A stretch of 64,000 bases of DNA from a virus (lineage: Duplodnaviria; Caudoviricetes). The stretch is taken from IMG/VR virus record IMGVR_UViG_3300032132_000748; one strand, given 5' to 3'. The notes beneath the pieces are model-generated. The model was not told the DNA's origin. It saw only the letters and a list, made by a program, of their open reading frames with translations, and searched no databases. The translations under genes and the position numbers were made by a program. Position 1 is the stretch's first letter. Every line of letters starts with the position of its first letter. Positions 2,326-50,712 of this stretch are shown piece by piece.

Positions 2326-2733
2326 ATGTATCAATTCGGTGAATTACCCTCAGACATAGATGATATGGATGACACCCTAGGACCGCCTCCAGCTTGGTTC
2401 AGGTCCGAGCAAAGCTATGTAAATCCCAGTTCTTATTATTACACTCCGGGCTATAACACTTTTTATGGTCTAGGAGATAGAGAACAGGAGCCTGAAGCAA
2501 ACCCAATTGAGGAATTGCAAGAACTTAAGTATAAGCAGGAATTAAACAGAAAAATTCCTTCTGTTGCTTACCGATACACCGCTATTGATCCTCTATCCCC
2601 GATGTTCCGCGACAGAAGAACAAAATACGGGTATGGTGGTCTGGGTGAAGATGGTAAAGCTAAAAAAGCCGTCCTACCTCTCCTAATCGCCGGTGTAGCA
2701 TTTTGGTTTTTATTTCTTAGAAAGACTGCATAA
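2326..2733 (+). CDS. Tail-anchored membrane protein with G-tag motifs (putative virion membrane protein)
   Basis: FGE, FYGLGD, YGGLGE; C-terminal TM followed by RK; TGCTATAAT and GGAG upstream. Confidence 0.7.
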   Translation: MYQFGELPSDIDDMDDTLGPPPAWFRSEQSYVNPSSYYYTPGYNTFYGLGDREQEPEANPIEELQELKYKQELNRKIPSVAYRYTAIDPLSPMFRDRRTKYGYGGLGEDGKAKKAVLPLLIAGVAFWFLFLRKTA

Positions 2734-2805
2734 CTTAGCCAACGTTGACCCTGATACATTCCTTGGTAACCTATACGTAGCCTCATAGGTTAAGGAGTGT
2801 TATTT

Positions 2806-3195
2806 ATGGCTACTAATGAAGTACCGTTTAATAGAGTTGTTGTTCCAAGCGAGGGTGGTAACCCTGGCGTTAAATTCGCTGAATTTCTCAATATTGATGA
2901 GGATAGCGAAATCACTTTTGCAGAAATGCAAAGCTACATCTACGACCGCCTGTTCCGCCTAGGAATGGTTCGTCATGTTGATGGCACTAGGGCTCGTCGC
3001 CCTCGCGCGAGAGACAGAGATGCTGCAAGGCGTCGTCGTAGTGGTGCCCGTGCTGTTACCGTAAAGGTAGGCAAAAAGGCTAAAGCTAAGACTAAAGCTA
3101 AGACTAAAGCTAAAGCTAAGACCAAAACCAAGACCAAAGGTGTCAAGGCTAAAGGTCGCAGCCGCAAAGCTAAAGCTAAAGCTAAAGCTAAATAA
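2806..3195 (+). CDS. Basic DNA-binding protein, SWIB-like N-domain plus H1-like K/A/T tail
   Basis: AAGGAG RBS 8 nt before ATG 2806; FAEFLNID..ITFAEMQSYIYD resembles SWIB; KAKAKTK repeats; followed by terminator. Confidence 0.7.
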   Translation: MATNEVPFNRVVVPSEGGNPGVKFAEFLNIDEDSEITFAEMQSYIYDRLFRLGMVRHVDGTRARRPRARDRDAARRRRSGARAVTVKVGKKAKAKTKAKTKAKAKTKTKTKGVKAKGRSRKAKAKAKAK

Positions 3196-3207
3196 CTCCT
3201 CTGTTAG

Positions 3208-3242
3208 AGAATAGCCCCTAGGTTTTCTTAGGGGCTATTTCT
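3208..3242 (+). terminator. Intrinsic terminator
   Basis: AATAGCCCCTA/TAGGGGCTATT hairpin after gene 2806. Confidence 0.75.
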
Positions 3243-3246
3243 CTGG

Positions 3247-5120: not shown

Positions 5121-5123
5121 ATT

Positions 5124-6095: not shown

Positions 6096-6125
6096 CTTCG
6101 AATCATTTGCTATACTTAGACTATC

Positions 6126-6648: not shown

Positions 6649-8208
6649 ATGTATAGTTCTCCATTCGGATCTATTTTCGGGCAAGACGATTCTGCCCCTA
6701 AAGCTGCCCCACCCAAGGCTGTAACTAAACCTGCTCCAAAAAAGCAGTCCGCTAAAATTATGCGCGAAATGCAAGAGCGTATGGAAAGTGTGGAAAAAGA
6801 AGAGGTTTATAAACCGGGCCAAACGAAGGGCAAGGATTCTGATAAGAAAAAACTCTTTGACAACACTCTTCCCCAATTTAGAGCAGAAGTTGAGGTGGAG
6901 AGTAAAAACCCTGAAGTTCGTAACGAGCAAGCCAAGTTCGCATTAGAAAAAATGCAAACAAAGTATGCGGCTGTTAAAAGAAAACTAGCAGAACTCAAGA
7001 GAAAACATGCCTCTGCACGCCTATATAATGATATGTTGGTGCAATACACCCAATTAGACCCCCAACACAAGCAAGATATAACCGGCTGGCTTAATCAAAA
7101 TATTGATGCGGTTAAGCAACTCGCTTCAGCTAGAAAACTTAAAAAGCTGACCAAAGACACAAAAGAAGCGGCTAGGGCCACTGATTTAGAGATTAAGCAT
7201 CTTGAAAAATTATCTGAGATAAAAGATACCGGAGTTAATGTTACCGGGGGAAGAACCCTTAAGAGCTTTAGAACTAAGGGTATGAAAAAAATACAAGATT
7301 CGTCAATCTCAGCCGATACCGGCCCCCTACCTAAGCTTGGAGGAAAAGTTTCTCTCAAGGATATAGTTCGCCTAGGAAACCGAGGGGTTTCTGAAATTCA
7401 AGGCTATGGAGAGGACGTTGATGAATTCGCCAGCCAAACAGAACGACCTTCAAAAAAGATCCCTAAAAAGGAAAAAGATGTCGTTCTTACCAGAAAGCTA
7501 GCTAAGCAACTTCACAAAAAGGACAGTTTCAAAGAACTCTTTGCTAAGGGGTTGAAGGGCAAGCGATATTACATGAATCAGCGTAAGTCTCGCGGGAAGG
7601 TTGAAAGACTTGAACATGGAACAGAACTGGCTCTGCTAGATCGCATGCAAATTAAATGGAAGCTTGAAAAACTTGAGACAAGAGTTAATAAAGAGCTAAG
7701 TGCTTACAAGGATACTCAAAAATCCATAAAGGGTTTAATATCTAAAGTCAAGAATAGCGGTGTTGAAGGTGGTAAGGTTACGACAGTGATTGGGATCCTA
7801 TCTGAAGCACGCCCAGAAAAATTTGTAGCCTCCGCTACACTACTCGACGCCCTCAAGAACTCTTTCAAACAACTATCACAGCTCGGATATTTTGGTCAGG
7901 AAGCTAAAACTCCTTCACAGGAAGCTAAAACTCTTCTTGCTACCTCAGCTAAAGAGTCAGAAGACGCAATAAGAGAGCTTGAAAGCCGCCAAAATGCAGC
8001 AGCTAAGCTTAAAGCAAAAGTAGAAGATAAACCTGCCCCAGCACCTGTTAGAACGCCAACTCCTGTTATTATTATTCAAATTAAGCAAGAACTTGAACAA
8101 CAAGAACAGGCGCAGCAAAAGAAAGAAGATACAATTAAAAAAGCAGGCACCATATTTCCTCTACTAATCGGTGGACTTATCCTGTATAAGATACTGGTAG
8201 GTAACTAA
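6649..8208 (+). CDS. Large K-rich coiled-coil protein with C-terminal TM and G-tags
   Basis: 519 aa; FGSIFGQ, IQGYGE, LGYFGQ; TM IFPLLIGGLILYKIL. Confidence 0.75.
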   Translation: MYSSPFGSIFGQDDSAPKAAPPKAVTKPAPKKQSAKIMREMQERMESVEKEEVYKPGQTKGKDSDKKKLFDNTLPQFRAEVEVESKNPEVRNEQAKFALEKMQTKYAAVKRKLAELKRKHASARLYNDMLVQYTQLDPQHKQDITGWLNQNIDAVKQLASARKLKKLTKDTKEAARATDLEIKHLEKLSEIKDTGVNVTGGRTLKSFRTKGMKKIQDSSISADTGPLPKLGGKVSLKDIVRLGNRGVSEIQGYGEDVDEFASQTERPSKKIPKKEKDVVLTRKLAKQLHKKDSFKELFAKGLKGKRYYMNQRKSRGKVERLEHGTELALLDRMQIKWKLEKLETRVNKELSAYKDTQKSIKGLISKVKNSGVEGGKVTTVIGILSEARPEKFVASATLLDALKNSFKQLSQLGYFGQEAKTPSQEAKTLLATSAKESEDAIRELESRQNAAAKLKAKVEDKPAPAPVRTPTPVIIIQIKQELEQQEQAQQKKEDTIKKAGTIFPLLIGGLILYKILVGN

Positions 8209-8639
8209 TGGCAACATATGAATACGCAAGCGCCCAGACAAGCCGCCTTGGAGAATTTCAAATAGCTCAAGGAGAGCGAGCATTTGGAGAATTCGGGCAA
8301 AGTGACGTTGTCGCGGGAATTAATGCAGTCGGTAATGCAGTTAATGGCATTGTAGGCTCCATAACTAGGGCTAGTGTACTCAAAACGCAGTCCAAAGACA
8401 GACGAAAAATTGCTCTCCATGTTGCAACAGAAAACACTAAAAAACTTGATATTCAAACTAGAGGTGCGGTGGAGCAAAAAGCCATCGAAGTAGAGCAAAC
8501 TAAGGCTACCCTAGGATCAATCTCTAAGCTTGTTCTAGTGGGAGGAAGCGTATTCATAGGAGTGATAATTGCCGGGGCCGTGGCCTATAAAGTAGCGGCA
8601 GGAGACTCAGGAGAATACGACCTAGAATACGCATACTAG
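8208..8639 (+). CDS. Membrane protein, paralog 1 of triplet
   Basis: LGEF..FGEFGQ, short coil, TM, acidic Tyr tail. Confidence 0.75.
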   Translation: MATYEYASAQTSRLGEFQIAQGERAFGEFGQSDVVAGINAVGNAVNGIVGSITRASVLKTQSKDRRKIALHVATENTKKLDIQTRGAVEQKAIEVEQTKATLGSISKLVLVGGSVFIGVIIAGAVAYKVAAGDSGEYDLEYAY

Positions 8640-8648
8640 GAGGTACGG

Positions 8649-9014
8649 ATGTATGTTACAGAATCCAGCCAACTAGGTGAATTTGGTGAATTTGGAATAA
8701 TCATCCAAGGCATCGTAGCTGCCGTACAAGGAGTTACTCTAGGGGCTGCAGCGGCAGTCGAGCATCAGGGAGTCAAAAAGTATCTCAAAAAGGAAGGGCG
8801 AACTTTTCAAATAGAGAGAGACGAAGCCCTCAAAGTAACAAAGCAACATCTGGCCAATAAAGAACGTCTTTTACGCGTCCAAGGACAGATAGAACTCACA
8901 AAAGATGCAAATGTTAAGAAATTAGTTATACTAGGTAGTGTGACTTTAACTGTAGTAACTCTTGTTGGATTAGGTGCTTATTACATGGTGTCCGTGGGAG
9001 ATGACGATGAGTAA
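8649..9014 (+). CDS. Membrane protein, paralog 2 of triplet
   Basis: AGGAGG RBS; LGEFGEFG, coil, TM, GDDDE tail. Confidence 0.75.
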   Translation: MYVTESSQLGEFGEFGIIIQGIVAAVQGVTLGAAAAVEHQGVKKYLKKEGRTFQIERDEALKVTKQHLANKERLLRVQGQIELTKDANVKKLVILGSVTLTVVTLVGLGAYYMVSVGDDDE

Positions 9015-9354
9015 CTTTGGCCAAATAATGGCTATCTTTGACACAGTCAACAGAGCAGGTGCCTTAACCTCCCATACTATAATTCAGAACAAAAAACTTA
9101 AAGGTGAACAAAAACTTGCTAGCCAACGAATTTCTAGCCAAGAACGCCTATCCAAGCTCGGAATTGATTTTCAAGGGAAAGAGCTAGAAGCCAAACTAAT
9201 TATCTCTCAACGAAGAGATAAGTTATTTAAAGATATTGCCCTTTATGCTGGTATAGGTATTGGAACAATTGCTATGATAATAACAGTAGGGGTGCTTTTT
9301 GTTGGAGCAAAGAGAGAAGATCAATACGAATATATGGAGGAAATAGTAGTTTAA
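9007..9354 (+). CDS. Membrane protein, paralog 3 of triplet
   Basis: Probable start ATG 9007 after GGAG; NFGQ, coil, TM, acidic tail. Confidence 0.7.
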   Translation: MSNFGQIMAIFDTVNRAGALTSHTIIQNKKLKGEQKLASQRISSQERLSKLGIDFQGKELEAKLIISQRRDKLFKDIALYAGIGIGTIAMIITVGVLFVGAKREDQYEYMEEIVV

Positions 9355-9597
9355 ATGGCCTATTATGAAACATTTGGAGGGTTTGGAAAAGGTTTCGCAC
9401 CGCCGCCCCCACCACCACCAGAGGACCCTACCGCGCCTACCATCACTCCTGAAGAGGAGGCTGCAATATTGCAAGCTACTCTTCCCATCCCAGAGCCAGA
9501 ACCTAGTTTTCTGCGGCGTAATGCTGTTCCACTTTTTGTCGGGGGCGGGATTCTAGTCCTAGGTACCGTAGGCATGCTCTTAATGATCAGAGTATAA
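9355..9597 (+). CDS. Pro-rich tail-anchored membrane protein
   Basis: GGAGG RBS; FGGFG, poly-Pro, C-terminal TM. Confidence 0.7.
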   Translation: MAYYETFGGFGKGFAPPPPPPPEDPTAPTITPEEEAAILQATLPIPEPEPSFLRRNAVPLFVGGGILVLGTVGMLLMIRV

Positions 9598-9637: not shown

Positions 9638-10639
9638 ATGGCGTGGAAAGAGCAACTTTTATTTTACAAACAAAGCCCCTATCAGCGTATAGCTTTCTTC
9701 ACGGAGAGTGATGGATCTCTGTCACTAACTCTTGATGATTATTGGCAGTTTAATAGCAAATGTGAGCACATCTATCATGAATGCCTCTTCACAATGCCAG
9801 GACTTTTCCCTAAGAACCTCAAAAACGTTCTGATTCTTGGTGGTGGTGATGGTTTGGGTGTGCGAGAGCTGCTTAAATACAAAACAGTCGAACATATTGA
9901 TATGGTAGATCTTGACCCTGAGATGATCAAATTTGCTAAGACAAATATCTTCATGAAGAATCTAAATAAAGATAGCATGAATAACCCTAAATTAAAGGTA
10001 GAGGTTACTGACGCTAAAAAATGGTTGGCTAAGCCAGTAACTAGAAAATATGATCTAGTTATTGTAGATTTCCCGGATCCAACGTCGGACCTCTTATGGA
10101 CTCTATATACTAAAGAACTTTACGGACAAATAGCCAGCAGGCTATCTAAAACCGGTATAGTTGCTATTCAGTCATCTACATATAACACAAAGACATTTGA
10201 ATTAATTTATGACAAATTAGATAAGGTATTTCCGTTCATTTTGGGTTACCACACAGGAGCCTCATCTGTATTTTGTGGATTTTTCCTAACTTCCTTTACT
10301 CCGATCAAAATGCAGCGTCCTATTCCGGTAAGCTGTCGCTGGTTGAAACCAGAATTGATCAATATGATACTTGGGCTACCCGTTGCTAACTCTAAAACTA
10401 AAAAGAAAAAATCCAGGCAGATACTTGACCCCGACAAGCTGGTCCTCAGAGCAAAACCCCAACTCAAAGGTCCAGCTAGTTTAGGTGAGCTAGGTCAGCC
10501 AGACCCTAATTTTTTCCCAGATAAAAATCCCATTAACGTACCACAGGAAGGTCCTTCCTTGTTTGCCAGCCCTGTCGTTAAGGGAGGGCTTGCAGTAGCG
10601 TTCATTATTCCGTTACTCTTGAAGGTGATGGGTAAGTAA
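9638..10639 (+). CDS. speE: Spermidine synthase (aminopropyltransferase) with added G-tag and C-terminal TM
   Basis: SPYQRI, EHIYHE, LILGGGDG, VDLD, DFPDP; extra tail LGELGQ plus hydrophobic helix. Confidence 0.9.
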   Translation: MAWKEQLLFYKQSPYQRIAFFTESDGSLSLTLDDYWQFNSKCEHIYHECLFTMPGLFPKNLKNVLILGGGDGLGVRELLKYKTVEHIDMVDLDPEMIKFAKTNIFMKNLNKDSMNNPKLKVEVTDAKKWLAKPVTRKYDLVIVDFPDPTSDLLWTLYTKELYGQIASRLSKTGIVAIQSSTYNTKTFELIYDKLDKVFPFILGYHTGASSVFCGFFLTSFTPIKMQRPIPVSCRWLKPELINMILGLPVANSKTKKKKSRQILDPDKLVLRAKPQLKGPASLGELGQPDPNFFPDKNPINVPQEGPSLFASPVVKGGLAVAFIIPLLLKVMGK

Positions 10640-11010
10640 TGGAACAACAAGATATACATAATACTGAAGCAACCCACTACGTCGTAGATTTTTATCAAAT
10701 AAAAAACGGGTCCTTACTTGATGATATGGATTTTTGTCTTACTGCAGTAAAAGACGCGGTCAACGCGGCTGGTTGTGGTATTTTGAATGAATTTTCCCAT
10801 AAATTTCATCCCCAAGGAGTCAGCATCAATCTAACTCTATCTGAAAGTCACTGCGCTATTCATACTTGGCCGGAGAGGGGTTACTGCGCCATAGATTTGT
10901 ATGGGTGTGGTGACGTGGATCTTCAAGCAGGAATTGATCTTTTTGCGGAAAGGTTTCAACCGGGTAAATCTGTAGTTCAAAAAATTAAAAGAGGTCACGA
11001 GCATGATTAA
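10639..11010 (+). CDS. speD: S-adenosylmethionine decarboxylase proenzyme (class 1B)
   Basis: HKFHPQGVS, LSESHCAIHTWPE autocleavage motif; coupled to speE. Confidence 0.92.
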   Translation: MEQQDIHNTEATHYVVDFYQIKNGSLLDDMDFCLTAVKDAVNAAGCGILNEFSHKFHPQGVSINLTLSESHCAIHTWPERGYCAIDLYGCGDVDLQAGIDLFAERFQPGKSVVQKIKRGHEHD

Positions 11011-11410
11011 ATTCGATGATGCAAAGTCTGACGACGAAAAAAAGATCGAACGCTCCTCTGAAATACTCTCTCGTACTATCCCAGAACAAACTGAAGATGC
11101 AATGAGTGACTACACTGCCGTGTTAGCTATCCTTAGAAAAGGGAAAGATTGGAGATTTGAGCCTCTGGTAAAGATGCTTGAAGACGTTTACATCTATCCT
11201 CGCAGAAGTGCCCATAACGAACTTGTAAGTGAGCTAAATGATCTCAAAGAGACACTATTAGAAGAAAGAATACAGAGAGTTCTTTCAAGCAAAGAAGCTA
11301 GTAAGCATTCTCAAAAATTCTTAGGGGATAATAAGCCTGCTAGTAAGATTACTCTTTGGAGAGTCTTGGTTGTTGGGGCGCTGGCCTACCTATTGTTTGG
11401 GCGAAAATAG
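11003..11410 (+). CDS. Tail-anchored membrane protein
   Basis: FLGD before C-terminal TM plus RK. Confidence 0.65.
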   Translation: MIKFDDAKSDDEKKIERSSEILSRTIPEQTEDAMSDYTAVLAILRKGKDWRFEPLVKMLEDVYIYPRRSAHNELVSELNDLKETLLEERIQRVLSSKEASKHSQKFLGDNKPASKITLWRVLVVGALAYLLFGRK

Positions 11411-13591: not shown

Positions 13592-13911
13592 TAAGCCCCC
13601 TTTAGGCTCTTAACTCTAAAAATCATAGCCACTAACAGGGCAGCAAGAATTGTTTTTGTGCTAAATCCGTAGTATTCATCCGGAAAAATGGCACCTGTTT
13701 TAATTTGAGTGAGTAAGTCGTCTTCCATCCCAAAATCTCCTAATCCTTCTAGCTGTCCGGTAGCGCGCGCTGCGGTAAACGCAGTTCTTTCAATCTTATT
13801 ATGAAATTTACTTACTCCAGAGATTTTTGTTTCTCTATCAGCAAGAGCAACTCCTTTATGGAGTCTTTTCATGATATTTTTGTATTTCATAGCAGAGCCT
13901 GTTAATCTCAT
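13591..13911 (-). CDS. Basic tail-anchored membrane protein
   Basis: LEGLGDFG, C-terminal TM; TAATG coupling. Confidence 0.7.
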   Translation of the reverse strand: MRLTGSAMKYKNIMKRLHKGVALADRETKISGVSKFHNKIERTAFTAARATGQLEGLGDFGMEDDLLTQIKTGAIFPDEYYGFSTKTILAALLVAMIFRVKSLKGA

Positions 13912-14888
13912 TAGTAACTCCTATTCCATCGATATGGATTTCTTCTAGCGTAGATTGAGGAATAAAGCCCGCTCTTAGGAAATAATCCTTCAGGGTTTCT
14001 TCTCCTTCTAGCGTAGATTGAGGAATAGAGACCATTCTTAGGAAATAATCCTTCGGGGTTTCTTCTCCTTCTTCGTGGGGCTCTTGGGGCTGCGGTTGGT
14101 GTGCGGCCCCAATCTTCAAGTTTTCTTCCTGCCGTCTCTGCGAGACGAGCGCCTTCCGTAGTTAAAGCTCGTCCAGTTACTCGCGCAGCACCTTTAACTC
14201 CTTCCATAAAGGAGTTTCTACGATACCTTTTATCCGGTTTTTTGCGAGTAGGATACATGGCGTCAAGCTCTCTGTCATGAGAGACAGGTCGTCCGCTATT
14301 AAAGCTCCATCCCGGATTACGGCGATACCTATCGGCTCCATAATCTCTTCTGTGTATTTTTGGTCGGCCACCTCTGAAACTCCATCCAGATATTTCTTCA
14401 TGGTCAAAATGCCTCTTTGGTCGATTTCCCGTAAAGCTCCACCCAGGGTTTCTACGATAGCTTCTAGCGCGCAGAGGGTTCCGTCTGCGGGTTCTTCTGC
14501 TATTCCAGGGGTTTCGCCTGCTATTGTGTCTACGTCGTCCCCAGGGGTTTCTACGGCGGCGTGAGTAGATACTATCGAATAACCCGTCGTCGCCCTGTAG
14601 GGGATTCTTTTTATAAAGCTTAGAGATTACATTTTTATAATGACTCTCATCTTTGAATTTATTATTTTTGTCGGCTAGAGGATCATACAGTGAAGGTCCC
14701 CAAGGGTTTCCTTCTGGGTCTGGATTCCTTCGGAAAGAAGATAAGCGGTCAAAATCTACATTTCTTCTGCGAAATGAAAGTAATCTACCGGGATCTAAAG
14801 AGTTACGTCGTCTAGATAGTCCAGAAGAGCGGGTTAGAGGTCGTGGGTGATTTCCCCATCTGTTATATCTACGTGCATATCTTCTCAT
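13911..14888 (-). CDS. Arg-rich RRNP-repeat protein (putative DNA-condensing core polyprotein)
   Basis: More than ten RRN(P/S) units, three GWSFxxxRP repeats, 60-nt tandem repeat near the 3' end. Confidence 0.75.
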   Translation of the reverse strand: MRRYARRYNRWGNHPRPLTRSSGLSRRRNSLDPGRLLSFRRRNVDFDRLSSFRRNPDPEGNPWGPSLYDPLADKNNKFKDESHYKNVISKLYKKNPLQGDDGLFDSIYSRRRRNPWGRRRHNSRRNPWNSRRTRRRNPLRARSYRRNPGWSFTGNRPKRHFDHEEISGWSFRGGRPKIHRRDYGADRYRRNPGWSFNSGRPVSHDRELDAMYPTRKKPDKRYRRNSFMEGVKGAARVTGRALTTEGARLAETAGRKLEDWGRTPTAAPRAPRRRRRNPEGLFPKNGLYSSIYARRRRNPEGLFPKSGLYSSIYARRNPYRWNRSY

Positions 14889-18879: not shown

Positions 18880-19188
18880 CTACGAAGCTGCTTGCTTCTT
18901 TCGTCTCATGGACCAGGCAAAACCTAAAAGGAAGAGTCCAATAAGCCATGTAGGGAAACCTTTGTATTTTTCAGAGAATAATGCGGCCTTCTTAGGGCCA
19001 GGAACAGTAGGTTTCTCGTCGTCATCGTCATCGTCATCGTCTTCAGCCTCAGCCTGTCCGAAGTAACCCCCTAAACCACCTAACCGAATATCGGTTCTTT
19101 GGGTGGGCGGTGATGATCCTCGTTTGCTATAAAGATCATTATAGATACCATCTTTAGAGTAAATTGATTTAAATAATCCTTTAGACAT
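18880..19188 (-). CDS. Tail-anchored membrane protein with poly-Asp
   Basis: LGGLGGYFGQ, poly-Asp tract, TM. Confidence 0.7.
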   Translation of the reverse strand: MSKGLFKSIYSKDGIYNDLYSKRGSSPPTQRTDIRLGGLGGYFGQAEAEDDDDDDDDEKPTVPGPKKAALFSEKYKGFPTWLIGLFLLGFAWSMRRKKQAAS

Positions 19189-20347: not shown

Positions 20348-20956
20348 TTATCCAGTAGTGGTCTTAAGATCTTCAACGTGATAGACCTTATAACCGATCA
20401 GACCAAGACGAACTTCGTTAGAAGCAAGTGAGAGGTCAGTTAGTTCTATTGTTATTGTTGAAGCACGAGCAATAAAGCGTGGCTTCGGCAAAATTAGCGG
20501 TAGCTGTGCTGTTCCTGCACCGATATCGGAGTGAACAGCAATGTTTGACCACTGACGATCGTTGGACGAATCTCGAACCAGGAACGCAAAAGGGGCTGTA
20601 GCTACACGAACCAACTTAGTTAGATAGAAGTCGGCTTCACGGGTAATTGAGATCGTGGTTGTTGCTGTTCCGCCTGAAGCGAGAGTTATAGGACTAGTAG
20701 CGTAAATGAAATACTCATCGAAGTTACCAGATTCGATCTTTCTGATCTTTTCTGCTAGCTTGAAGTTATCTTTACGTAGTCTTTTATTTTCTTCCTGCAT
20801 AGATAGCAGAATTTCTTGTAGAGTTTGTAGGTTTAAGCTTCCGCCTGCAGCGGCACCGCCGCCTGCGTCTGCTTGACCGAAGCCATTACCACCACCATAT
20901 CCACTAAATTGTGGTTGCTGTGGTTGACCCCAGTTTCCAATATTATTGTAAGGCAT
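20348..20956 (-). CDS. Putative single jelly-roll capsid protein with N-terminal G-tag and coil
   Basis: FSGYGG, FGQ; YFIY..EADFYL..GTAQLPLILPKP..LIGYKVY beta-rich domain. Confidence 0.55.
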   Translation of the reverse strand: MPYNNIGNWGQPQQPQFSGYGGGNGFGQADAGGGAAAGGSLNLQTLQEILLSMQEENKRLRKDNFKLAEKIRKIESGNFDEYFIYATSPITLASGGTATTTISITREADFYLTKLVRVATAPFAFLVRDSSNDRQWSNIAVHSDIGAGTAQLPLILPKPRFIARASTITIELTDLSLASNEVRLGLIGYKVYHVEDLKTTTG

Positions 20957-32596: not shown

Positions 32597-32668
32597 AGTT
32601 ATCCTCAAACGGTTTAGTTACTTATAAAATAGGCGATTAGTAGTATTGGCGCAAGCTTTAGACATCAA

Positions 32669-35191: not shown

Positions 35192-37059
35192 AACTCGTAG
35201 CCGATAACGTCAGCAGAGAATATACCTGTATTTCCAGCCATTCCAGTAACACCAAGTGTTAGGGTGGCACCTGCAGTTCCTACAACAGCTTTAGCACTTG
35301 AACTGAAGGTCCATAGATCATCTGCTGCTGTGACTCCTGTTGTTACTGTAGGAGCAAACACGTTACTTGTAGGTGCTGCACCGAATCCGGCAGCCGCAGT
35401 TGTGGCTGTTGTAATACCATCTGCGGTTGTTAGACGCAAGACAACTTCTGTAATTACTGCACTGGTTCCGCCAGGAACGTTATAGAGGAATATTTGAGTA
35501 GCTCCTAGGACTGCGTCGATATCGTCAACAGTTGCTAGGACTCCAACACCACCGGCAGCACCGATTCCTGTTACTCCTTGATCACCAGTAATACCAGTTG
35601 CTCCAGTTGCGGCTGGCGCACCCAGAATACCTGTTAATCCTTGGATACCAGTATCACCGTCAACGCCAGTTGTACCACTCATTCCAGTAATACCTTCGAA
35701 TCCAGTATTACCTTGGACACCGGTATCACCCATCATTCCGCCAGGACCTTGAATACCTGTCGCGCCAAGAATGGCAACTCCAGTATCACCTTGTTCGCCT
35801 TGAATACCCGTATCACCAACTACGCCGGTGACGCCGTCAGCACCAAGACCTGTATCACCTTGGACACCCGCACCAGTATTACCAGTTAATCCTAGGATAC
35901 CTGTATCACCTTGGGTTCCAACAACACCTGTGTCACCTTGAACGCCAACACCTGTATCACCAGTTAATCCGATAATACCTGTATCTCCTTGTGTTCCTTG
36001 TAGCCCCGCAACACCAGTATCACCTTGAATACCAACAACACCAGTATCACCTTGTGTTCCTTGTAGCCCTGCAACACCAGTATCTCCCTGAGCGCCTACA
36101 ACGCCGGTATCGCCTTGTGTTCCTTGAATGCCTTGAAGTCCAGTTACGCCTTGGGTTCCTACGCCTGTATCACCAGTCACACCGATAATACCAGTATCAC
36201 CAACTAAACCAGTAATACCTTGAGAGCCGGGAGCACCTGATGAACCTGGGGTTCCTTCAAGACCAGTTGTTCCTTCGAGACCAGTAACACCTTGACCACC
36301 GTCTACGCCGGTGCAACCTTTAATACCCGTATCACCTTGAGGGCCAGCTAATCCGGTTGTTCCTTGTGAACCGCCACCGCCGCCACTACCAAAAGGTTGG
36401 TTACCGCTAACGCTAATAGATCCACTTGTTCCTGTGGACTCAACAAGTCCTACAGGAACACTTACTGAACCGGCACTGCTGGTGGGATTAATCATACCAG
36501 GGGTGTCTGATAGGAAAGCTGTCTCACCAATGGTCATTGTTCCTACGTCAATTACAACAGATCCGCTGATAACACAGCTACCACACTCACCATCGTCTAG
36601 AGCTTCTTCGAGGATTCCAAAAGCTAACGCAGTAGGGGAGGCCGCAGCGCTGGCTAGATCGACAGTGGCGAGCTGTTGTGCTGTGTCATAGCCGGTGTTA
36701 TAGACAACACTACCTTTAGGTAGTGTGCTTCCAGTGCTGTTTAAGACTTTAATGCATTTATAGTCGCAAAGGAAGGCGTTTGATAGTTCGAATGAGTTAT
36801 TTAACTCTTCGTCAGTATCAAAATATACAATTGTTCCTCGTCCGGTTTTGTACCCCGGAACGGTTGTATCCGCAGGGAGGATTTTAATATAACTTAAATT
36901 TCCTATAGCTCCTACTGCGGTTACTGTTCCAGTCCCTGATCCTAAAGAACCGAGACTCGCGGCAGCGACTTTTCCAGTCCTACCTTGTTGTTTAAGCGTA
37001 ATACCTACGTATGAAGATACTACTCTCACTACATCGTTTACTGAAAAGTTTATGGCCAT
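35188..37059 (-). CDS. Collagen-like fibre protein (shared N-module, ~270-aa interrupted Gly-X-Y, C-terminal beta domain)
   Basis: GDT/GVT/GxQ triplets at about 35560-36363; C-terminal LYNVPGGTSAVITEV..VIGYEF. Confidence 0.9.
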   Translation of the reverse strand: MAINFSVNDVVRVVSSYVGITLKQQGRTGKVAAASLGSLGSGTGTVTAVGAIGNLSYIKILPADTTVPGYKTGRGTIVYFDTDEELNNSFELSNAFLCDYKCIKVLNSTGSTLPKGSVVYNTGYDTAQQLATVDLASAAASPTALAFGILEEALDDGECGSCVISGSVVIDVGTMTIGETAFLSDTPGMINPTSSAGSVSVPVGLVESTGTSGSISVSGNQPFGSGGGGGSQGTTGLAGPQGDTGIKGCTGVDGGQGVTGLEGTTGLEGTPGSSGAPGSQGITGLVGDTGIIGVTGDTGVGTQGVTGLQGIQGTQGDTGVVGAQGDTGVAGLQGTQGDTGVVGIQGDTGVAGLQGTQGDTGIIGLTGDTGVGVQGDTGVVGTQGDTGILGLTGNTGAGVQGDTGLGADGVTGVVGDTGIQGEQGDTGVAILGATGIQGPGGMMGDTGVQGNTGFEGITGMSGTTGVDGDTGIQGLTGILGAPAATGATGITGDQGVTGIGAAGGVGVLATVDDIDAVLGATQIFLYNVPGGTSAVITEVVLRLTTADGITTATTAAAGFGAAPTSNVFAPTVTTGVTAADDLWTFSSSAKAVVGTAGATLTLGVTGMAGNTGIFSADVIGYEF

Positions 37060-37769: not shown

Positions 37770-38600
37770 TTATAGGGTGCGGTGAATTTTAATAGGGTCA
37801 TTGGATATGTAAGTATAGCATTCTGGTCCAATAACCTTTAGATCAACACTGGCGTAAGCTACATGGGCTCTCTTTGACCAATATTTGATTTCTTCCAGAT
37901 CTTTAACTCGATCAGCCATCCATTCTGCTCGACGGGCAGGATCTGTATGGAAGAGAATCTCTCCGTCATCTTTAGCCATAAAATACCTATTAAGTTTAAG
38001 TAGAGGGTTATACTTTGTTAAAGGCTTCACTCTGACTAGCGGATCCATAATACAAGCCACACCACCAGGGTTTAGCTTACTAAGCAAACAATCTAAATAT
38101 TTTTTATACCTAGCTTCATTCTTCTTCTTATCTCCTGGCTGAGTTGTATAATCAAACTCACAGTCGTCAATAATGATGTCGTATTTATATGGTGTTTCTA
38201 TTAAAAACTTTATACCGTCTCCAACTTTTAATTTAACTCGTGGATCGTTAAAAGAATCATTTGTGAGCTGTCTCATCACTGGATGAGTCTTTGTTAGATT
38301 AACTAATACTGGATCTAACTCAACATTTGTTAATTCTTTAACTATGTTCTTATGTCTTAGAAATTCTCTGGCAGCCAACCCGTCCCCACCACCAATTACT
38401 AGTATTCTTCTGGGGGTTTTTGCCAGCATTAACGGGTATTTTGCCATATATTGATGAGAAATATAACATTCTTTAGTATGAAACTGCAATATATTATTCA
38501 GAGCGAGCCAGTGATGCCTACCATTTTGATATAAATCAATTGTTTGGTAAGGAGACTTGCCTTTATAAAGCGCTACGTTTTTTCCTCTGGGTATCCACAT
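37770..38600 (-). CDS. Second spermidine-synthase-like aminopropyltransferase
   Basis: SPYQTI, LQF, VIGGGDG, VELD, DDCEFD in place of DxxDP; probable start ATG 38600. Confidence 0.8.
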   Translation of the reverse strand: MWIPRGKNVALYKGKSPYQTIDLYQNGRHHWLALNNILQFHTKECYISHQYMAKYPLMLAKTPRRILVIGGGDGLAAREFLRHKNIVKELTNVELDPVLVNLTKTHPVMRQLTNDSFNDPRVKLKVGDGIKFLIETPYKYDIIIDDCEFDYTTQPGDKKKNEARYKKYLDCLLSKLNPGGVACIMDPLVRVKPLTKYNPLLKLNRYFMAKDDGEILFHTDPARRAEWMADRVKDLEEIKYWSKRAHVAYASVDLKVIGPECYTYISNDPIKIHRTL

Positions 38601-43576: not shown

Positions 43577-44134
43577 CTAGTGGACCTCGCGCTTGAAGAA
43601 ACCGTCGAGGTAAACACTAAGTGCTACTGTGGCGGACAAAGTCTGAGGTGTTGGAAGGTTTACTTCACAACGGAAGTTTTGCTGTGGGATCAAGTCAATG
43701 GGCTCGGCCAAGACGTAGATACCACGTTGGTCAGGACGACCGTTGGTTACTGAAACAACGTCAGTAGAACCAGCGGCAACACCGTCAAGACCGACACCAG
43801 CGGTCAACATGAAAAGGTTGACAACTAGATAGTCCTTAGTTCCGATGAAAAGACGGAACCAAGCGTTGTTGAAGATAGCGTTGAGGTCGGCAACAGCACT
43901 GTCGTACTGGTTGATTAAACGGATTGCGTGAATCTCAAAGTTCTTCGGGTATGGCAGGCTTCCACCCTGGTCCATATTGGTTTGAACTTGTGTCTTAGGT
44001 AGCACGCCACCTGGGGTAGTTCCACCGAGTGGAACCTGGAAGAAGTTCAATTGTGAAGTACCACTTGTAGCGACGGTGTTACGGTCGTATAGTGGTTGTT
44101 GGATGCGTTCTAGCAATCCTGGAATACGAGGCAT
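43577..44134 (-). CDS. Putative single jelly-roll major capsid protein A
   Basis: 185 aa beta-rich, AAGGAG RBS, tandem paralog, end of promoter/terminator-bounded operon; fold is inference. Confidence 0.65.
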   Translation of the reverse strand: MPRIPGLLERIQQPLYDRNTVATSGTSQLNFFQVPLGGTTPGGVLPKTQVQTNMDQGGSLPYPKNFEIHAIRLINQYDSAVADLNAIFNNAWFRLFIGTKDYLVVNLFMLTAGVGLDGVAAGSTDVVSVTNGRPDQRGIYVLAEPIDLIPQQNFRCEVNLPTPQTLSATVALSVYLDGFFKREVH

Positions 44135-44248: not shown

Positions 44249-44818
44249 TTAGTGGACCTCACGTTTGAAGAATCCATCCAAGTATACACTTAGATCGACG
44301 CTTGCAGTTAGAGGAGCACCAGCAGCAAATGGCGTTGGGAAATTAATTTCGCAACGGAAGTTCTGCTGAGGAATCAAGTCAATTGGCTCGGCCAATACAT
44401 AGATTCCACGTTGGTCTGGACGACCGTTAACAACTGAAACAACGTCGGTTGTTCCTGCTGCTACACCGTCAAGTCCAACTCCAGCAGTAAGCATGAAGGA
44501 GTTAACAACTAGATAGTCCTTAGTTCCGATAAAGAGACGGAACCATGAGCTGTCATAAATGCGGTTAAGGTCTGCAACCTCAGCACCGTATTCGTTGATT
44601 AGACGGATAGCATGAATCTCGAAGTTCTTCGGGTAAGGAAGACTTCCTCCTTGATCCATGTTTGTTTGTACCTGCGTTTTAGCAGTTACTGATCCAGCTG
44701 CGGCTCCACCAAGTGGGACTTGGAAGTAATTTAGCTGGCCGGTGCCGCTCGTTGCAACCGTGTTACGGTCGTAGAGAGGCTGTTGAATGCGTTCTAGCAA
44801 TCCTGGAATACGAGGCAT
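44249..44818 (-). CDS. Putative single jelly-roll major capsid protein B
   Basis: 189 aa, about 85% identical to protein A by manual alignment. Confidence 0.65.
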   Translation of the reverse strand: MPRIPGLLERIQQPLYDRNTVATSGTGQLNYFQVPLGGAAAGSVTAKTQVQTNMDQGGSLPYPKNFEIHAIRLINEYGAEVADLNRIYDSSWFRLFIGTKDYLVVNSFMLTAGVGLDGVAAGTTDVVSVVNGRPDQRGIYVLAEPIDLIPQQNFRCEINFPTPFAAGAPLTASVDLSVYLDGFFKREVH

Positions 44819-44941: not shown

Positions 44942-45895
44942 TTATTCAAAGTCGGCGGCAGCGGCGGTGTCCCACAATGATCCGTCAAGACCTTCGTAGC
45001 CACCATAGTGCCCTGCACTGTGTTTCATTGTATCGGCAACTTGCTGATCACGGGGGTTAGCAGTCTCTGGGACGAATCCTGCAAGACCTGATTCCGCTTC
45101 GAAAGAACCGAGACGTTGTGAGTTGTAGATATCGCCTAGGGGCTCGTATCCACTTAGGAATGGGTTGTCCTCTGGATCAACTAAATCAGTTGCGGCAACA
45201 ACTGGTTGACCGAAGTAACCTTCCATGCCTGGAGCTACACCAGTGGTGAACTCGTCATAATATGCTTGTCCGTAAGGTGAGTAACCTTCAAACTCTTTTG
45301 ACCAGCTTCCCCATCCTGCGAGACCTTTAGCCTCAAGGAATCCTTCGACTGGTGCTTGTGCGATCTTCCAGAAACCGAGTGTCATAGCACCGATTGCTCC
45401 AGGGATTGCTGCTTGACGTAGGAAGTCACCAACGGTTCCTGCACCTAACATCTCAGAGATCTTTAGTGCAGCAACGCCGCCACCGATACCACTAGCAACA
45501 GCTAGAATACCTTGACCGACACTACCTTCGCCTACTCTTTCACCAAGTAGTTTACTGCCTATCGCTAGGACGGCACCGCCGCCAACTGCTGCGACACCAG
45601 CATACATAATGTTTTTTCCACCTTCACCTGCAACGCTCTTAACAAGGTCACCCATTGCTGGGTTACGACGACGACGTGACAATGGGTTACGACGTTTCTT
45701 GCTGCGGCTGCGGCTCCGGCTCTTTTTGCTTCGGCTTTTTTTTGCCTTGCGCTTTTTACTTGCCATTTTAGCCCTCTTTTTCATTTTCGGACCGTCTTCA
45801 TCATCTAGTGAATACGGGTTTACGATTAAAAGTTCTGGGTTTCGCCTTCTTTTCTTTTTGTTTGGGAGATTAGACGGATTTACCATATAAAACAT
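44942..45895 (-). CDS. RRNP-rich multi-TM protein with G-tagged acidic tail (putative major virion membrane/core protein)
   Basis: RRNP x3, three Gly/Ala-rich hydrophobic helices, LAGWG, MEGYFGQ, LSGYEPLGD; probable ATG 45895. Confidence 0.75.
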   Translation of the reverse strand: MFYMVNPSNLPNKKKRRRNPELLIVNPYSLDDEDGPKMKKRAKMASKKRKAKKSRSKKSRSRSRSKKRRNPLSRRRRNPAMGDLVKSVAGEGGKNIMYAGVAAVGGGAVLAIGSKLLGERVGEGSVGQGILAVASGIGGGVAALKISEMLGAGTVGDFLRQAAIPGAIGAMTLGFWKIAQAPVEGFLEAKGLAGWGSWSKEFEGYSPYGQAYYDEFTTGVAPGMEGYFGQPVVAATDLVDPEDNPFLSGYEPLGDIYNSQRLGSFEAESGLAGFVPETANPRDQQVADTMKHSAGHYGGYEGLDGSLWDTAAAADFE

Positions 45896-45911
45896 TGTTG
45901 TTTTCTCCAAT

Positions 45912-47037: not shown

Positions 47038-47066
47038 TTAATAAATAATCTCCTTAATGATTGTTA

Positions 47067-47231: not shown

Positions 47232-47306
47232 GTAAAAATATACTCCCTCCTAAGACACTAGGGTAATAGAAAAAGACCTATCTTCAAGTTCGGGACAGCA
47301 ATTTAC

Positions 47307-47337
47307 AAAAAAAGGGTGAGTCTTTCGACCCACCCTG
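47307..47337 (-). terminator. Intrinsic terminator
   Basis: AGGGTG.GTC/GAC.CACCCT hairpin with T-run on minus strand. Confidence 0.7.
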
Positions 47338-47360
47338 CTTACTTTATATAGAAACTTATT

Positions 47361-47720
47361 TTAAGAGCGTTTTCTTAACTTCTCGGTTTTGTTAAATCCT
47401 TCTATTTTAGAATCTTTCAATAAAATAGTTAACTGCTGAAAAGGTTTACTTCTAATATGATTGATAGTTAGTATTTCATCAGGCGATAGTTTTAAAGGAA
47501 CACCTGGTTTAAGGTTTACTTTATTAATTAAACTAAAAACTAGACCGCCACCTTTTTTACGCCTATACTTTAATGTTTGATTAACAGAAGATATTACTCC
47601 ATCTTGTAGCTGTACTACAATCTCCTGGTAAGCAAATCTACGCATCATAGTGATGACATCAATTTCTTCAGGAGCAAGCTTCAAGCTTTTGAATGCTGTA
47701 GCGGTTGTTTTTCCAGTCAT
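47361..47720 (-). CDS. Tandem DUF2292/YezD-like domain protein
   Basis: Two internal repeats LKLxPxEI..Y/FQ....QDG/KDS.I....TxKxR. Confidence 0.65.
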   Translation of the reverse strand: MTGKTTATAFKSLKLAPEEIDVITMMRRFAYQEIVVQLQDGVISSVNQTLKYRRKKGGGLVFSLINKVNLKPGVPLKLSPDEILTINHIRSKPFQQLTILLKDSKIEGFNKTEKLRKRS

Positions 47721-48367
47721 TATCCTATGATACCTCTTTCGGTAAACTCAAATTGTACACCATACATCACTAAAAAGTCTCTCTTCGGACTAAGACAAAC
47801 TATAGGCTTCTCTTTTGCTTCGGGAACACCGTCTCCTCGATCTTTTGCTGTGTGGATAAAGGGGACACCGCGTCTCTCTGAATATTCAGGAACACTATAT
47901 ACAATATGATTTAGATGACCCCAGAAAACTAACCAATCTGTGTCATCAGTCTCTACTTTTTTAATTTTATCGTGCTTCACGCCGTGGAAAGCTTCATGCA
48001 AATCTACAGCTTCTTTAATATCTTCGTGCTCAGGATCAATCCAAACGTCTCCTGTTATCTTATCTCCAGAAACTATTGCAACTACTTTGCCATCACCGGA
48101 GGCGGTTACGACCGCTTTCTTTTTAGATTTTATTAATCCAAGCGAATCTATTTTTGCTTCTGCAGGGGTTTCACACTCCAGTTCTTCGAGTTCTCCGACT
48201 AATAAAAACCCTTTAGGCATATTATTAATATCGAACTCACATTGAAGTTCTTTCTTTTTACCACTAAATCGTGCTTCACCTCTAATACGGCCAGACGTAT
48301 AGGGAGACACAACTTTGTTAGATCTTTCTGCTAATGCTGGATTTTTACGTTTACGTCTTTTTCGCAC
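47720..48367 (-). CDS. Hypothetical protein with N-terminal RKRKNP
   Basis: 215 aa; basic start ending in NP; LHEAFHG. Confidence 0.7.
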   Translation of the reverse strand: MRKRRKRKNPALAERSNKVVSPYTSGRIRGEARFSGKKKELQCEFDINNMPKGFLLVGELEELECETPAEAKIDSLGLIKSKKKAVVTASGDGKVVAIVSGDKITGDVWIDPEHEDIKEAVDLHEAFHGVKHDKIKKVETDDTDWLVFWGHLNHIVYSVPEYSERRGVPFIHTAKDRGDGVPEAKEKPIVCLSPKRDFLVMYGVQFEFTERGIIG

Positions 48368-48376
48368 AGGGCCACC

Positions 48377-48592
48377 TTATCTATTAAGTAATTTGTAAGC
48401 TACTACTAGTATAAATAAAGTACCTAAAAGCCCAAATGATTTTTTAGTTTCAGTGACTCTTTTGGCCTCTTCAGAGCCAAGCTGCCACCCATCTAGAGCT
48501 GCGTGTCTAGCATGAATTCGTTGTTCCGGTTTAGCCTTCAAGCCCATACCCAGAGATAAATTATCTAAGTTTCCAAACATATTACCTCGCAT
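48377..48592 (-). CDS. Small tail-anchored protein
   Basis: MFGN, LDGWQLG, C-terminal TM. Confidence 0.6.
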   Translation of the reverse strand: MRGNMFGNLDNLSLGMGLKAKPEQRIHARHAALDGWQLGSEEAKRVTETKKSFGLLGTLFILVVAYKLLNR

Positions 48593-48938
48593 GTTTTAGC
48601 CTCTTCAGCTTTTTAGCCATCATGGCTATTTTTTTCTTTTGTTGATCTTGTTTATATAGCAATAAAGCAACACCTAATAATAGCAAAAGTATCACACCTA
48701 TAGTCAACATTTTCTTATTCTGGAGTAAACCAGAAAATTGCCCCAACCCTGCTAAGGTGTTAGGGCTTTTAAAAACATTTATAATGGGTGTTGGTGCTTG
48801 TTGCGGCACTACAGGACCCGTTCTTTGTTTTGAAACTTTATTTCCCAAGGCTTTCATTTCTTTGAGAGCCTTGATCATTTCAGGATGTTTACTTGGATCT
48901 TCTCCCCCAAACATGGGTTGAAATGGGAAATTTTTCAT
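48582..48938 (-). CDS. Tail-anchored membrane protein
   Basis: LAGLGQFSG then TM and basic tail. Confidence 0.7.
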   Translation of the reverse strand: MKNFPFQPMFGGEDPSKHPEMIKALKEMKALGNKVSKQRTGPVVPQQAPTPIINVFKSPNTLAGLGQFSGLLQNKKMLTIGVILLLLLGVALLLYKQDQQKKKIAMMAKKLKRLKHAR

Positions 48939-48943
48939 ATGTT

Positions 48944-49984
48944 TTATTTACGCTTCCTGCGGCGCTTATTTCTCTTAGCGGCAGCGGCAACTTTTTGTTT
49001 GTTCTTATACCACCAGATAACACCGACAATAGCAAGACCTGCTGCAGCAAAACCAATATACTTGGTTGCGCCACCGCCATGGAAGTCTCCTAGACCGGCA
49101 AGACCTTGACTCTTGTTGATATTTGAAAGAAGTTTTTTGCCTAAGGCCATATCCTTCTCGGCTTTAATCTGAGCTTTTTCACCCATGCCAAGCTTGGCCC
49201 CAACAGCACCTACTGCTTTATTAAGCATAGCACCAAAACCACCTGTTTTTGGAAGTGATGGGTTTATTAGCCAGCCAATGTTACTTTCTATTTCGGCACG
49301 CTGTAGATCTAAATACCGCATATTAGTTTTCTTACGTCGTTTGAGCATTTCAGTTGCGAGATTATAATAATCTTGTTTAACACTCATTGGAGTATCGTCT
49401 CCTACAACAGCTACTGCTTTTGCGAGAGCCTTAATTAATCCGGTTTCAGTATTAGATTTTGAAGCTTTGTGGAAATAGGTGTGAAAACTTTCAAGAGGTG
49501 TGTCTCCTAGACCACCATAACCGTCAAAAGCATCGTCATCATCGTCATCATCGTCGTCAATGCCTGCTTCTTTTGCAGTTCTAGAAATCATAGCAGACCC
49601 CATACCTTCGTAACCTGCGAAAGCGTCGTCCTGCGTTCCTGCGAAAGCGTCGTCTTCTATTCCGCCGAAGCTCATACCTTCAGCGCCAGCCATGTTCATG
49701 TCTGGACCTTCAATGGAGTAGCTGTTTTTCTGAGCCAGCCTAGACAACGCTTTGGTTCCTAGGTTACCACCGCTGGTTAAGGACTGTTCCATTTCTTGCA
49801 AATAATCTGCATAGGGCTCATATCCTGCGAGTCCCTGCAATCCTGCAGGAAGTCTATTACTGTTTTGTTCGGCGATACGGGCGATGTTGTTGGTGGTTTG
49901 CTTTTGCCCAGTTACAGCAGAACCAAACCCTTCACCCATTTGATATTCAGCAAAGCTGTCACTGTCTGATCTATTATAGGCCAT
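48944..49984 (-). CDS. Tail-anchored protein with many G-tags and poly-Asp
   Basis: AAGGAG RBS; MGEGFG, LAGYE, YEGMG, FDGYGGLGD, LAGLGDF; TM; basic end. Confidence 0.75.
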   Translation of the reverse strand: MAYNRSDSDSFAEYQMGEGFGSAVTGQKQTTNNIARIAEQNSNRLPAGLQGLAGYEPYADYLQEMEQSLTSGGNLGTKALSRLAQKNSYSIEGPDMNMAGAEGMSFGGIEDDAFAGTQDDAFAGYEGMGSAMISRTAKEAGIDDDDDDDDDAFDGYGGLGDTPLESFHTYFHKASKSNTETGLIKALAKAVAVVGDDTPMSVKQDYYNLATEMLKRRKKTNMRYLDLQRAEIESNIGWLINPSLPKTGGFGAMLNKAVGAVGAKLGMGEKAQIKAEKDMALGKKLLSNINKSQGLAGLGDFHGGGATKYIGFAAAGLAIVGVIWWYKNKQKVAAAAKRNKRRRKRK

Positions 49985-49986
49985 GG

Positions 49987-50712
49987 TTACTCCTTAGTTT
50001 TCCTTGATTTTATCAAATAATATATTGCGGTTGCTATTATTATACCGAAAATTAAATTTGAATGTGAGTGGCTGGAATCTTCAAAAGTTCCATCCAAGTT
50101 AAATATTTTTTTTGTTGCATACTTAGGCGCTTCCCAGCCCATTTTAGCTCCCGGAACAGAGCCATCCAAACCAATCCACTTATTGTTGATTTTAGTTTGG
50201 ATATAAATATGTGAATAATCTTCCTTGTCTTTATAGTTATTTCCAATAATGACAATTCTTACCGGGTGTCCGATGGACTGTAATAATGCTCCTGTTAGGA
50301 TGACAAAATCATCGCAGTCTGCAGCTTTATTATGTCTGCGCAATAGTTCTCTAGCGCGGTGTACTGTTTCAACTCTGTGAATATCCTTAGTATAGCGCAG
50401 TCTTCTTACGACAAAATTATAAACAGCCTTTACTTCTTTTTTATAATCCTTTTCTGGAATATATTGCGTTATTTTTTCTGCGAGAGTTCGGATAACCATA
50501 TCCTTTTTACCCTCATCAATAAGCTTTTTAATTACCTCAACAGACTCATAGGTAGCGCGGCTACTCTCAGAGAGTTTGACGTGATAAGTTTTCATATCTT
50601 CTTTGGGCAAAAACTTATCAAGCCATGATGCTATACGCGCATATTCAGCATCGTAATCATCCACGTCTGGATTGATATCGCCAATGAATCTAGGTAACTT
50701 ATTTTGAGACAT
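49987..50712 (-). CDS. Transglutaminase-like cysteine enzyme (putative maturation protease), C-terminal TM
   Basis: ADCDD (Cys), SHIY (His), WIGLD (Asp) papain-like triad order; RYTKD. Confidence 0.85.
   Translation of the reverse strand: MSQNKLPRFIGDINPDVDDYDAEYARIASWLDKFLPKEDMKTYHVKLSESSRATYESVEVIKKLIDEGKKDMVIRTLAEKITQYIPEKDYKKEVKAVYNFVVRRLRYTKDIHRVETVHRARELLRRHNKAADCDDFVILTGALLQSIGHPVRIVIIGNNYKDKEDYSHIYIQTKINNKWIGLDGSVPGAKMGWEAPKYATKKIFNLDGTFEDSSHSHSNLIFGIIIATAIYYLIKSRKTKE

Follow-up and report, generated by a model that had tools for sequence, protein, structure and literature searches.

A recurrent glycine-centred tag on particle proteins of an uncultured virus and a tail-anchored transglutaminase-fold enzyme as its candidate reader

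A 64,000-nucleotide stretch of viral DNA (IMG/VR record IMGVR_UViG_3300032132_000748, assigned to Caudoviricetes; hereafter the window), which is part of a contig of 859,269 bases from a giant, uncultured virus that contains a membrane, encodes a short sequence word built around glycine and hydrophobic residues that recurs on many different proteins, together with an enzyme of the transglutaminase fold that carries a membrane anchor, the product of open reading frame (ORF) 49987 (ORFs are named here by their first coordinate). We conclude with high confidence that this word, the tag, is a selected, portable short linear motif of the particle module, and it is probably a signal for cutting or docking in particle building. 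As a candidate mechanism, drawn from the sequences and from analogy with known viral proteases, we propose at a probability of roughly 0.4 that the ORF 49987 enzyme cleaves at the tag. An earlier reading of the window (the original prediction) had the enzyme cleaving or ligating at the tag, thereby releasing cargo from the membrane, with capsid binding as the alternative. The components of that interpretation, a real, selected and portable tag and an intact, anchored enzyme, have stood up to analysis; the cleavage, ligation and capsid binding that it invoked are unsupported.

Frequency, placement and conservation of the tag

The strict form of the tag, [FLY]xG[FLY]G[DEQ], occurs 10 times in the window (nine instances plus that of ORF 38603), compared with 0.41 expected from shuffling each protein and 0.67 and 0.47 expected when residues are shuffled within blocks of 8 and 15, respectively; none of 300 such shuffles reaches the observed count, and the predicted enrichment over shuffled sequences is thereby upheld. 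The minimal core, [FLY]G[DEQ], is found 64 times against ~37 expected, which corresponds to ~25–30 tags above chance. The other five orders of the same three residue classes yield 35–50 matches each, and control patterns are flat. All of the motif instances listed in the original prediction are present in the ORFs to which they were assigned, and its figure of ~25 proteins fits loosely with the excess of core matches, although a well-defined tag is carried by ~17–21 proteins of the window. Around the core, Gly is enriched 2.7-fold at position -1 and 3.1-fold at -4, and Phe, Tyr and Leu approximately twofold at -3, giving the full consensus G-[FLY]-x-G-[FLY]-G-[DEQ]. The third core position is occupied by Asp, Glu and Gln in 24, 25 and 21 cases, the flanks are acidic and disorder-prone, and in distant lineages the tag takes the form [LMI]-x-G-[LM]-G.

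The distribution of the tag follows that of membrane anchors. A single C-terminal membrane helix is present in 21 window proteins, which we refer to as tail-anchored, and the pattern [GE]hG[DEQ] (h, hydrophobic) has a density of 0.40 per 100 residues in 17–21 such proteins compared with 0.05 elsewhere, an 8-fold difference (Fisher p = 2e-4) of the kind anticipated for proteins with a membrane tail. Within the tail-anchored proteins, tag density per 100 residues is 1.9 over residues 1–30, 2.2 right before the helix and 0.56 in the stretch that separates the two, in agreement with the proposal that tags sit at N-termini or immediately ahead of the C-terminal helix. The juxtamembrane tags lie 3–8 residues ahead of the helix in six proteins and 19–20 residues ahead in two more, and nearly all of the C-terminal helices are followed by Lys or Arg. 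The carriers, which were described as otherwise unrelated, indeed show no similarity to each other at E <= 1e-3, except for the hydroxylase pair 38603/39362, and none has an N-terminal hydrophobic segment or signal peptide. The tag-bearing genes, together with the enzyme and its neighbour, are as follows.

2326..2733 (+): tail-anchored protein, 135 residues, three tags, one of them 5 residues before the helix
6649..8208 (+): tail-anchored protein, 519 residues, an N-terminal tag and two internal ones
8208..9597 (+): a run of four small tail-anchored proteins, all tagged at the N-terminus, often in tandem, within the first ~30 residues
9638..10639 (+): spermidine-synthase-like protein (Pfam Spermine_synth), tandem tag followed by a C-terminal helix (tag at residues 282-287, helix from about 307)
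11003..11410 (+): tail-anchored protein, 135 residues, minimal form of the tag 6 residues ahead of the helix
13265..13911 (-): pair of small tail-anchored proteins (108 and 106 residues), each having strict tags in the linker that precedes the helix
14941..15579 (-): tail-anchored protein, 212 residues, juxtamembrane tag (56 homologs)
18880..19188 (-): tail-anchored protein, 102 residues, tag in tandem, then a run of acidic residues
19602..20342 (-): particle protein with a single jelly-roll, 246 residues, tag on a disordered N-terminal arm (AlphaFold2 (AF2) model, 57 homologs)
20348..20956 (-): beta-rich particle protein, 202 residues, tagged N-terminal arm rich in Gly and aromatic residues
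38603..39325 (-): 2-oxoglutarate-oxygenase-like protein, strict tag at residues 6-11, paralog of 39362
44942..45910 (-): membrane protein, 322 residues, basic N-terminus, several conserved h-G-[DEQ] words in the C-terminal half
47720..48367 (-): neighbour of the enzyme, 215 residues, with a C-terminal domain of ~100 residues, found as a fusion with the enzyme in distant relatives
48582..48938 (-): tail-anchored protein, 118 residues, tag 6 residues before the helix, basic tail
48944..49984 (-): tail-anchored protein, 346 residues, four tags (N-terminal, mid-linker and juxtamembrane), long basic tail; directly downstream of the enzyme gene
49987..50712 (-): tail-anchored transglutaminase-fold Cys-His-Asp enzyme, 241 residues, candidate reader or cutter of the tag (Pfam, AF2 model)

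Conservation among homologs provides evidence of selection that is separate from the counts. In the jelly-roll family of ORF 19602, the tag word [FL]G[ED]LP.DL[RK] is found in 57 of 57 homologs (42–87% identity), and the N-terminal tag of the unrelated 2326 protein is an identical word. In the AF2 model of the 19602 protein, residues 1–23 have a predicted local distance difference test score (pLDDT) below 50 and the beta-sandwich body a score of about 90. The best fold matches of the body, at modest scores, are HHIV-2 6h82_b (Z 8.8) and SPV1 VP4 (Z 8.4), both of them jelly-roll proteins from viruses with an internal membrane. In the family of ORF 14941, L-x-G-[FLYV] is located ~8–12 residues ahead of the helix in 53 of 56 homologs; the column conservation of the tag is 0.9, 0.6, 0.9 and 0.8 compared with 0.2–0.4 in the flanks, and the constrained positions, numbered as in a protease site, are P4 Leu, P2 Gly, P1 Phe or Leu and P1' Gly, Ala or Ser. 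As judged from these alignments, the tag is under purifying selection and forms an island of conservation amid variable linkers in both families. The orthologs of ORFs 48944 and 44942 at six syntenic loci present the same picture, with tags that hold their position while the flanks diverge; those of the 48944 protein are positionally kept in 5–6 orthologs, and its synteny with the enzyme gene extends to loci L001–L004 and L006.

Of two spermidine-synthase paralogs in the window (9638-10639 (+) and 37770-38600 (-), 35% identity), only the 9638 product has the tag and the C-terminal membrane helix, as though this synthase had been adapted to the membrane of the particle.

The tail-anchored enzyme and its association with the tag

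The product of ORF 49987 matches the Pfam family PF01841 (Transglut_core) with 42.7 bits (cut-off 23; E = 7e-11), and the residues Cys133, His168 and Asp183 are invariant across 29 homologs, down to 31% identity. Its single helix is C-terminal, at about residues 218–236, so that both the catalytic triad and the tail anchor postulated at the outset are confirmed; an N-terminal hydrophobic segment is missing, unlike in enzymes of the LapG type, which have signal peptides. The AF2 model (pLDDT 87.6) has as its top VIA match the structure 3kd4 (Z 13.4, root-mean-square deviation 2.9, 143 residues aligned), followed by factor XIII, TG3, TG2, 3isr and LapG at Z 9.6–10.4; LapG, at Z 9.6, is tied with transglutaminases and PNGase and has a Foldseek E of about 1e-4 to 2e-3. 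The pseudomurein isopeptidases PeiP (Z 8.7) and PeiW (Z 8.5) are also among the matches. The nearest solved structures include the putative or proven cysteine proteases 3kd4, 3isr, LapG and CPR-C4, in keeping with the earlier statement that transglutaminase-like folds include proteases, and for CPR-C4 protease activity has been demonstrated (PMC9108980).

The enzyme family is large, comprising 785 clusters at E <= 1e-30, and ORF 49987 is better conserved than any gene around it except a capsid-like pair, with 64–82% identity among relatives compared with 35–55% for neighbouring genes. The sole homolog from a cultured phage is gp34 of SSIP-1 (Salisaeta icosahedral phage 1; JN880423, 21296-22210; 26% identity, E = 3e-8), which has a tail anchor, bears the annotation of structural protein and is the first in a run of tail-anchored genes. 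SSIP-1 is a membrane-containing icosahedral phage with two types of capsid protein (PMC6356626). The C-terminal domain of the neighbouring 47720 protein, ~100 residues long, is similar to parts of the enzyme homologs P0060 and P0069 (BLASTP E = 9e-5 and 0.006) and is fused to the C-terminus of the enzymes P0060, P0063, P0066 and P0069 and of that encoded at L008:269-1174, a fusion which hints that the two proteins work together. Close homologs of the enzyme also have, in 53 of 56 cases, the word [FLY]-x-G-D-[ILV] near the N-terminus (about residues 9–13 of the ORF 49987 product).

Relatives of the enzyme were recovered by an alignment-based scan of viral contigs, a scan with the single sequence having given none. 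In the pooled proteins of 28 distant enzyme-bearing viral loci, h-x-G-h-G occurs at 0.22 per 100 residues in 103 tail-anchored proteins compared with 0.04 in 695 others (5.6-fold, p = 7e-15; control pattern, 1.7-fold). The whole layout of tags and enzyme is repeated at L007, where the enzyme is 33% identical and the GC content is 63%, and in a complete genome of 85.6 kb 12 of 17 tags fall within a 15-kb block that contains the enzyme gene. The enzymes are themselves tagged: 142 diverse representatives have 42 tags in their own C-terminal extensions against 6.6 expected, at a density of 0.33 per 100 residues compared with 0.02 in the catalytic domain, and [LMF]-[DE]-G-x marks the boundary between catalytic domain and linker in 53 of 56 close homologs. 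In the enzyme-less phages PRD1, PM2, P23-77 and Bam35c there is one tag in 1,367 tail-anchored residues compared with 8 in 16,177 residues elsewhere, which agrees with the absence of the tag where the enzyme is absent, although these 16 proteins are too few to count. Taken over these genomes, the sequences suggest that enzyme and tag partly travel together, co-occurring in distant virus lineages but not always.

Cleavage, docking and other readings of the tag

The tag sits on flexible N-terminal arms and on linkers just above the C-terminal helix. In the mechanism that we favour, one common viral factor would read it there, at the interface between capsid and membrane. We infer the identity of this factor: the ORF 49987 enzyme would be packaged with its substrates, on the same face of the membrane, and would cut at hydrophobic-x-Gly-hydrophobic↓Gly (or another small residue), much as the adenovirus protease does at (M/I/L)-X-G-X↓G. 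During maturation, such cuts would take off N-terminal leaders and release ectodomains from their anchors, among them those of grafted enzymes, of which the SpeE-like protein is one. Cleavage is favoured because the constrained positions mirror adenovirus protease sites and because the tags lie at domain boundaries.

The adenovirus protease (adenain) cuts capsid and core precursors at (M/I/L)-X-G-X↓G and (M/I/L)-X-G-G↓X, for example at IVGL↓G and QRGF↓G (PMC4246237). The suggestion that the tag is shaped like these sites holds, since the constraints at P4, P2 and P1' agree; in both systems a code of hydrophobic P4, Gly P2 and small P1' is placed on many unrelated particle proteins, and a single packaged cysteine enzyme encoded by a jelly-roll virus acts in adenovirus as the ORF 49987 product may act here. 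The two differ in that adenain has its own fold (clan CE) and the present enzyme a transglutaminase-like one, in the membrane anchor of the latter, in the acidic or Gln residue that follows the tag, and in that those relatives whose host is known or inferred (SSIP-1 and IMG/VR contigs) point to prokaryotes. Among bacterial enzymes, LapG (BTLCP) shares the fold, with a match no better than those to transglutaminases and PNGase, and the Cys-His-Asp triad, and releases its substrate site-specifically from a membrane-proximal anchor, which is the candidate role of ORF 49987. LapG is periplasmic, has a signal peptide, depends on calcium, cuts at a di-alanine site and is controlled by LapD (PMC3032545, PMC10990149), whereas the ORF 49987 product lacks a signal peptide, is anchored by a C-terminal helix and has a candidate site based on Gly. 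The di-alanine motif of BTLCP substrates reads (T/A/P)-A-A-(G/V). SSIP-1 resembles the window in the enzyme homolog with its tail anchor and structural annotation and in the run of tail-anchored genes, and differs in having no statistical enrichment of the tag: G-[ML]-G words are few and mostly close to the N-terminus, and they occur in ORF36, gp53, ORF52 and the gp34 linker.

Several observations weigh against cleavage by ORF 49987. Transglutaminases, PNGase, PeiP and PeiW match its fold about as well as proteases do, so the fold alone leaves the reaction unfixed and does not separate a protease from a transglutaminase, isopeptidase or amidase. Tag enrichment is absent from SSIP-1, L005, L008 and many of the 28 loci taken singly, and tags on the tail of the enzyme would also be expected if it were an ordinary tagged membrane protein. 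A conserved stretch of ~14 residues to either side of the tag among 19602 homologs, a word with which the unrelated 2326 protein also opens, and the frequent tandem copies, suggestive of avidity, both suit a docking peptide better, and a distance of just 3–8 residues between juxtamembrane tag and helix is tight for a globular protease. The tag could therefore be an uncut docking or assembly peptide for a putative common surface, either the inner face of the jelly-roll capsid or a scaffold, by which membrane proteins, arms of the capsid and grafted enzymes are brought to the interface between capsid and membrane, and we rate this as nearly as likely as cleavage. The enzyme would then have another job, for example as a virion-borne cell-wall hydrolase for entry, which would fit the presence of PeiP and PeiW among its fold matches. 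PeiW and PeiP cut pseudomurein, and P7 of PRD1 cuts peptidoglycan. The tag on a soluble jelly-roll protein as well as on membrane proteins, the SSIP-1 virion with the enzyme and without the enrichment, and the locus-by-locus patchiness of that enrichment are likewise compatible with docking. What speaks for cleavage is that the conserved positions follow the pattern of a protease site (P4, P2, P1 and a small P1') instead of a continuous interface, that tags stand at domain boundaries, where a cut makes sense, and that the enzyme family itself is tagged across lineages. The capsid targeting sequence of T4, trimmed by the prohead protease gp21, and the vaccinia A17 tail, with the D13 scaffold and the I7 protease, are cases in which a shared peptide targets proteins to the forming particle and is then removed; they resemble the present system if docking and cleavage are joined in one reading, and differ from it in enzyme class and motif.

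Another protease might cut at the tag, either a double-glycine peptidase of the C39 type or an unrecognised enzyme elsewhere in the 859-kb genome. A Peptidase_C39-like gene (L007:1872-2525 (+)) lies inside a module rich in tags and tail anchors, and the protease search covered the 64-kb window, with ~795 kb of the genome outside it; these two points also tell against a role for ORF 49987. Nevertheless, we consider a different protease unlikely: tblastn and phmmer found no homolog of the L007 C39 protein in the window, C39, C48 and S78 proteases are absent from two complete genomes that bear both tag and enzyme, and no peptidase or sortase-like family is present among the 25 that are listed of the 40 Pfam families of window proteins. 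A search with the adenain family PF00770 gave no match in any control genome and is hence uninformative.

Less probable again is a transpeptidase or ligase activity, sortase- or transglutaminase-like, at the juxtamembrane tag, by which proteins would be transferred to a capsid amine, a lipid or an exposed Gly N-terminus to link membrane and shell covalently. The six to eight proteins in which the motif is followed 3–8 residues on by the helix and then by a basic tail, with a membrane-bound cysteine enzyme encoded nearby, do recall the signals of sortases, exosortases and rhombosortases; transglutaminase-fold enzymes use a thioester and can transfer acyl groups, and the top fold matches include factor XIII, TG2 and TG3. 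The differences are that half of the tags are N-terminal and unfit for a C-terminal sorting signal, that the carriers have no signal peptides, that the spacing between tag and helix ranges from 3 to 20 residues, that the enzyme family is unrelated and that no sortase-like family is among the 25 listed Pfam families. Asp, Glu and Gln swap freely at the third core position, so that a Gln donor is not required, and this makes Gln-Lys cross-linking of the classical kind unlikely at the tag. It is very improbable that the recurrence is a mere by-product of flexible linkers rich in Gly and aromatic residues, with no specific reader. The motif was defined after being seen, and related control patterns are 1.7-fold richer in tail-anchored proteins; yet shuffles that keep local composition never attain the observed count, the residue order is specific, the tag is a conservation island in two large families, and the enrichment was replicated in independent lineages with the pattern fixed beforehand. 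An Hsp70 encoded in the window (30698-32608) was considered as the tag reader and dropped, since DnaK-type binding sites are hydrophobic-basic and the tag is hydrophobic-Gly-acidic.

Should cleavage by ORF 49987 be correct, its bearing would extend beyond this virus. It is possible, and we put it forward tentatively, that a large, mostly uncultured group of membrane-containing jelly-roll viruses, probably infecting prokaryotes and including the virus of the 859-kb genome, has its own membrane-tethered maturation protease of the transglutaminase fold, which would read a code of the adenovirus type, hydrophobic-x-Gly-x↓Gly, on arms of the capsid and on linkers of membrane proteins. In the accepted model, a maturation protease is missing from bacterial jelly-roll viruses of the PRD1 type and was gained later by the eukaryotic branch of polintons, virophages, adenoviruses and giant viruses (PMC6260650); the present system would then represent an independent invention of a maturation logic that has until now been linked with this eukaryotic branch of the realm. 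Bacterial-type membrane-containing viruses would possess their own code for maturation or sorting, which would explain how dozens of unrelated proteins, metabolic enzymes included, are loaded onto the internal membrane and would supply a sequence rule for predicting the particle proteins of uncultured viruses. In a bolder version, the enzyme would, in the manner of a sortase, attach the proteins that it has cut to amines of the capsid or of lipids. No description of a system combining tag and enzyme was found in the literature on transglutaminase-like enzymes in membrane-containing phages, on tail-anchored virion proteins alongside a maturation protease and on giant tailless bacterial viruses. 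As the family has one cultured member, SSIP-1, the idea is directly testable.

Other features of the window

The window contains ~88 genes, with dense coding and a GC content of 40%, and its products include an Hsp70, superoxide dismutase, spermidine synthase, AdoMet decarboxylase, a patatin, a haem peroxidase and a collagen-like protein. A highly conserved tandem pair of 185 and 189 residues (43577-44134 (-) and 44249-44818 (-)) looks like the major capsid proteins; the 249-residue product of 34442-35191 (+) is a distant paralog of this pair (E = 3e-5 and 6e-4). The animal-type haem peroxidase and the collagen-like protein (25238-27406 (+) and 35188-37059 (-)) have in common an N-terminal module of ~120 residues (E = 2e-7).

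A second repeated word, [RK][RK]-N-P, is observed 16 times in the window against 0.77 expected, at 13911-14888 (-), 44942-45910 (-), 47720-48367 (-) and 63217-63405 (+). Ten of the copies are in the ORF 13911 product, a protein of 325 residues that is 21% Arg and composed of repeat units, which could be a DNA-condensing core protein or the bearer of a second processing signal. Finally, Tyr is present at residue 2–4 in 19 of 88 window proteins compared with 8.6 expected, mostly in particle and tail-anchored proteins; examples are the products of ORFs 9355, 48944, 34442, 33905, 20348, 6126, 8208 and 14941.

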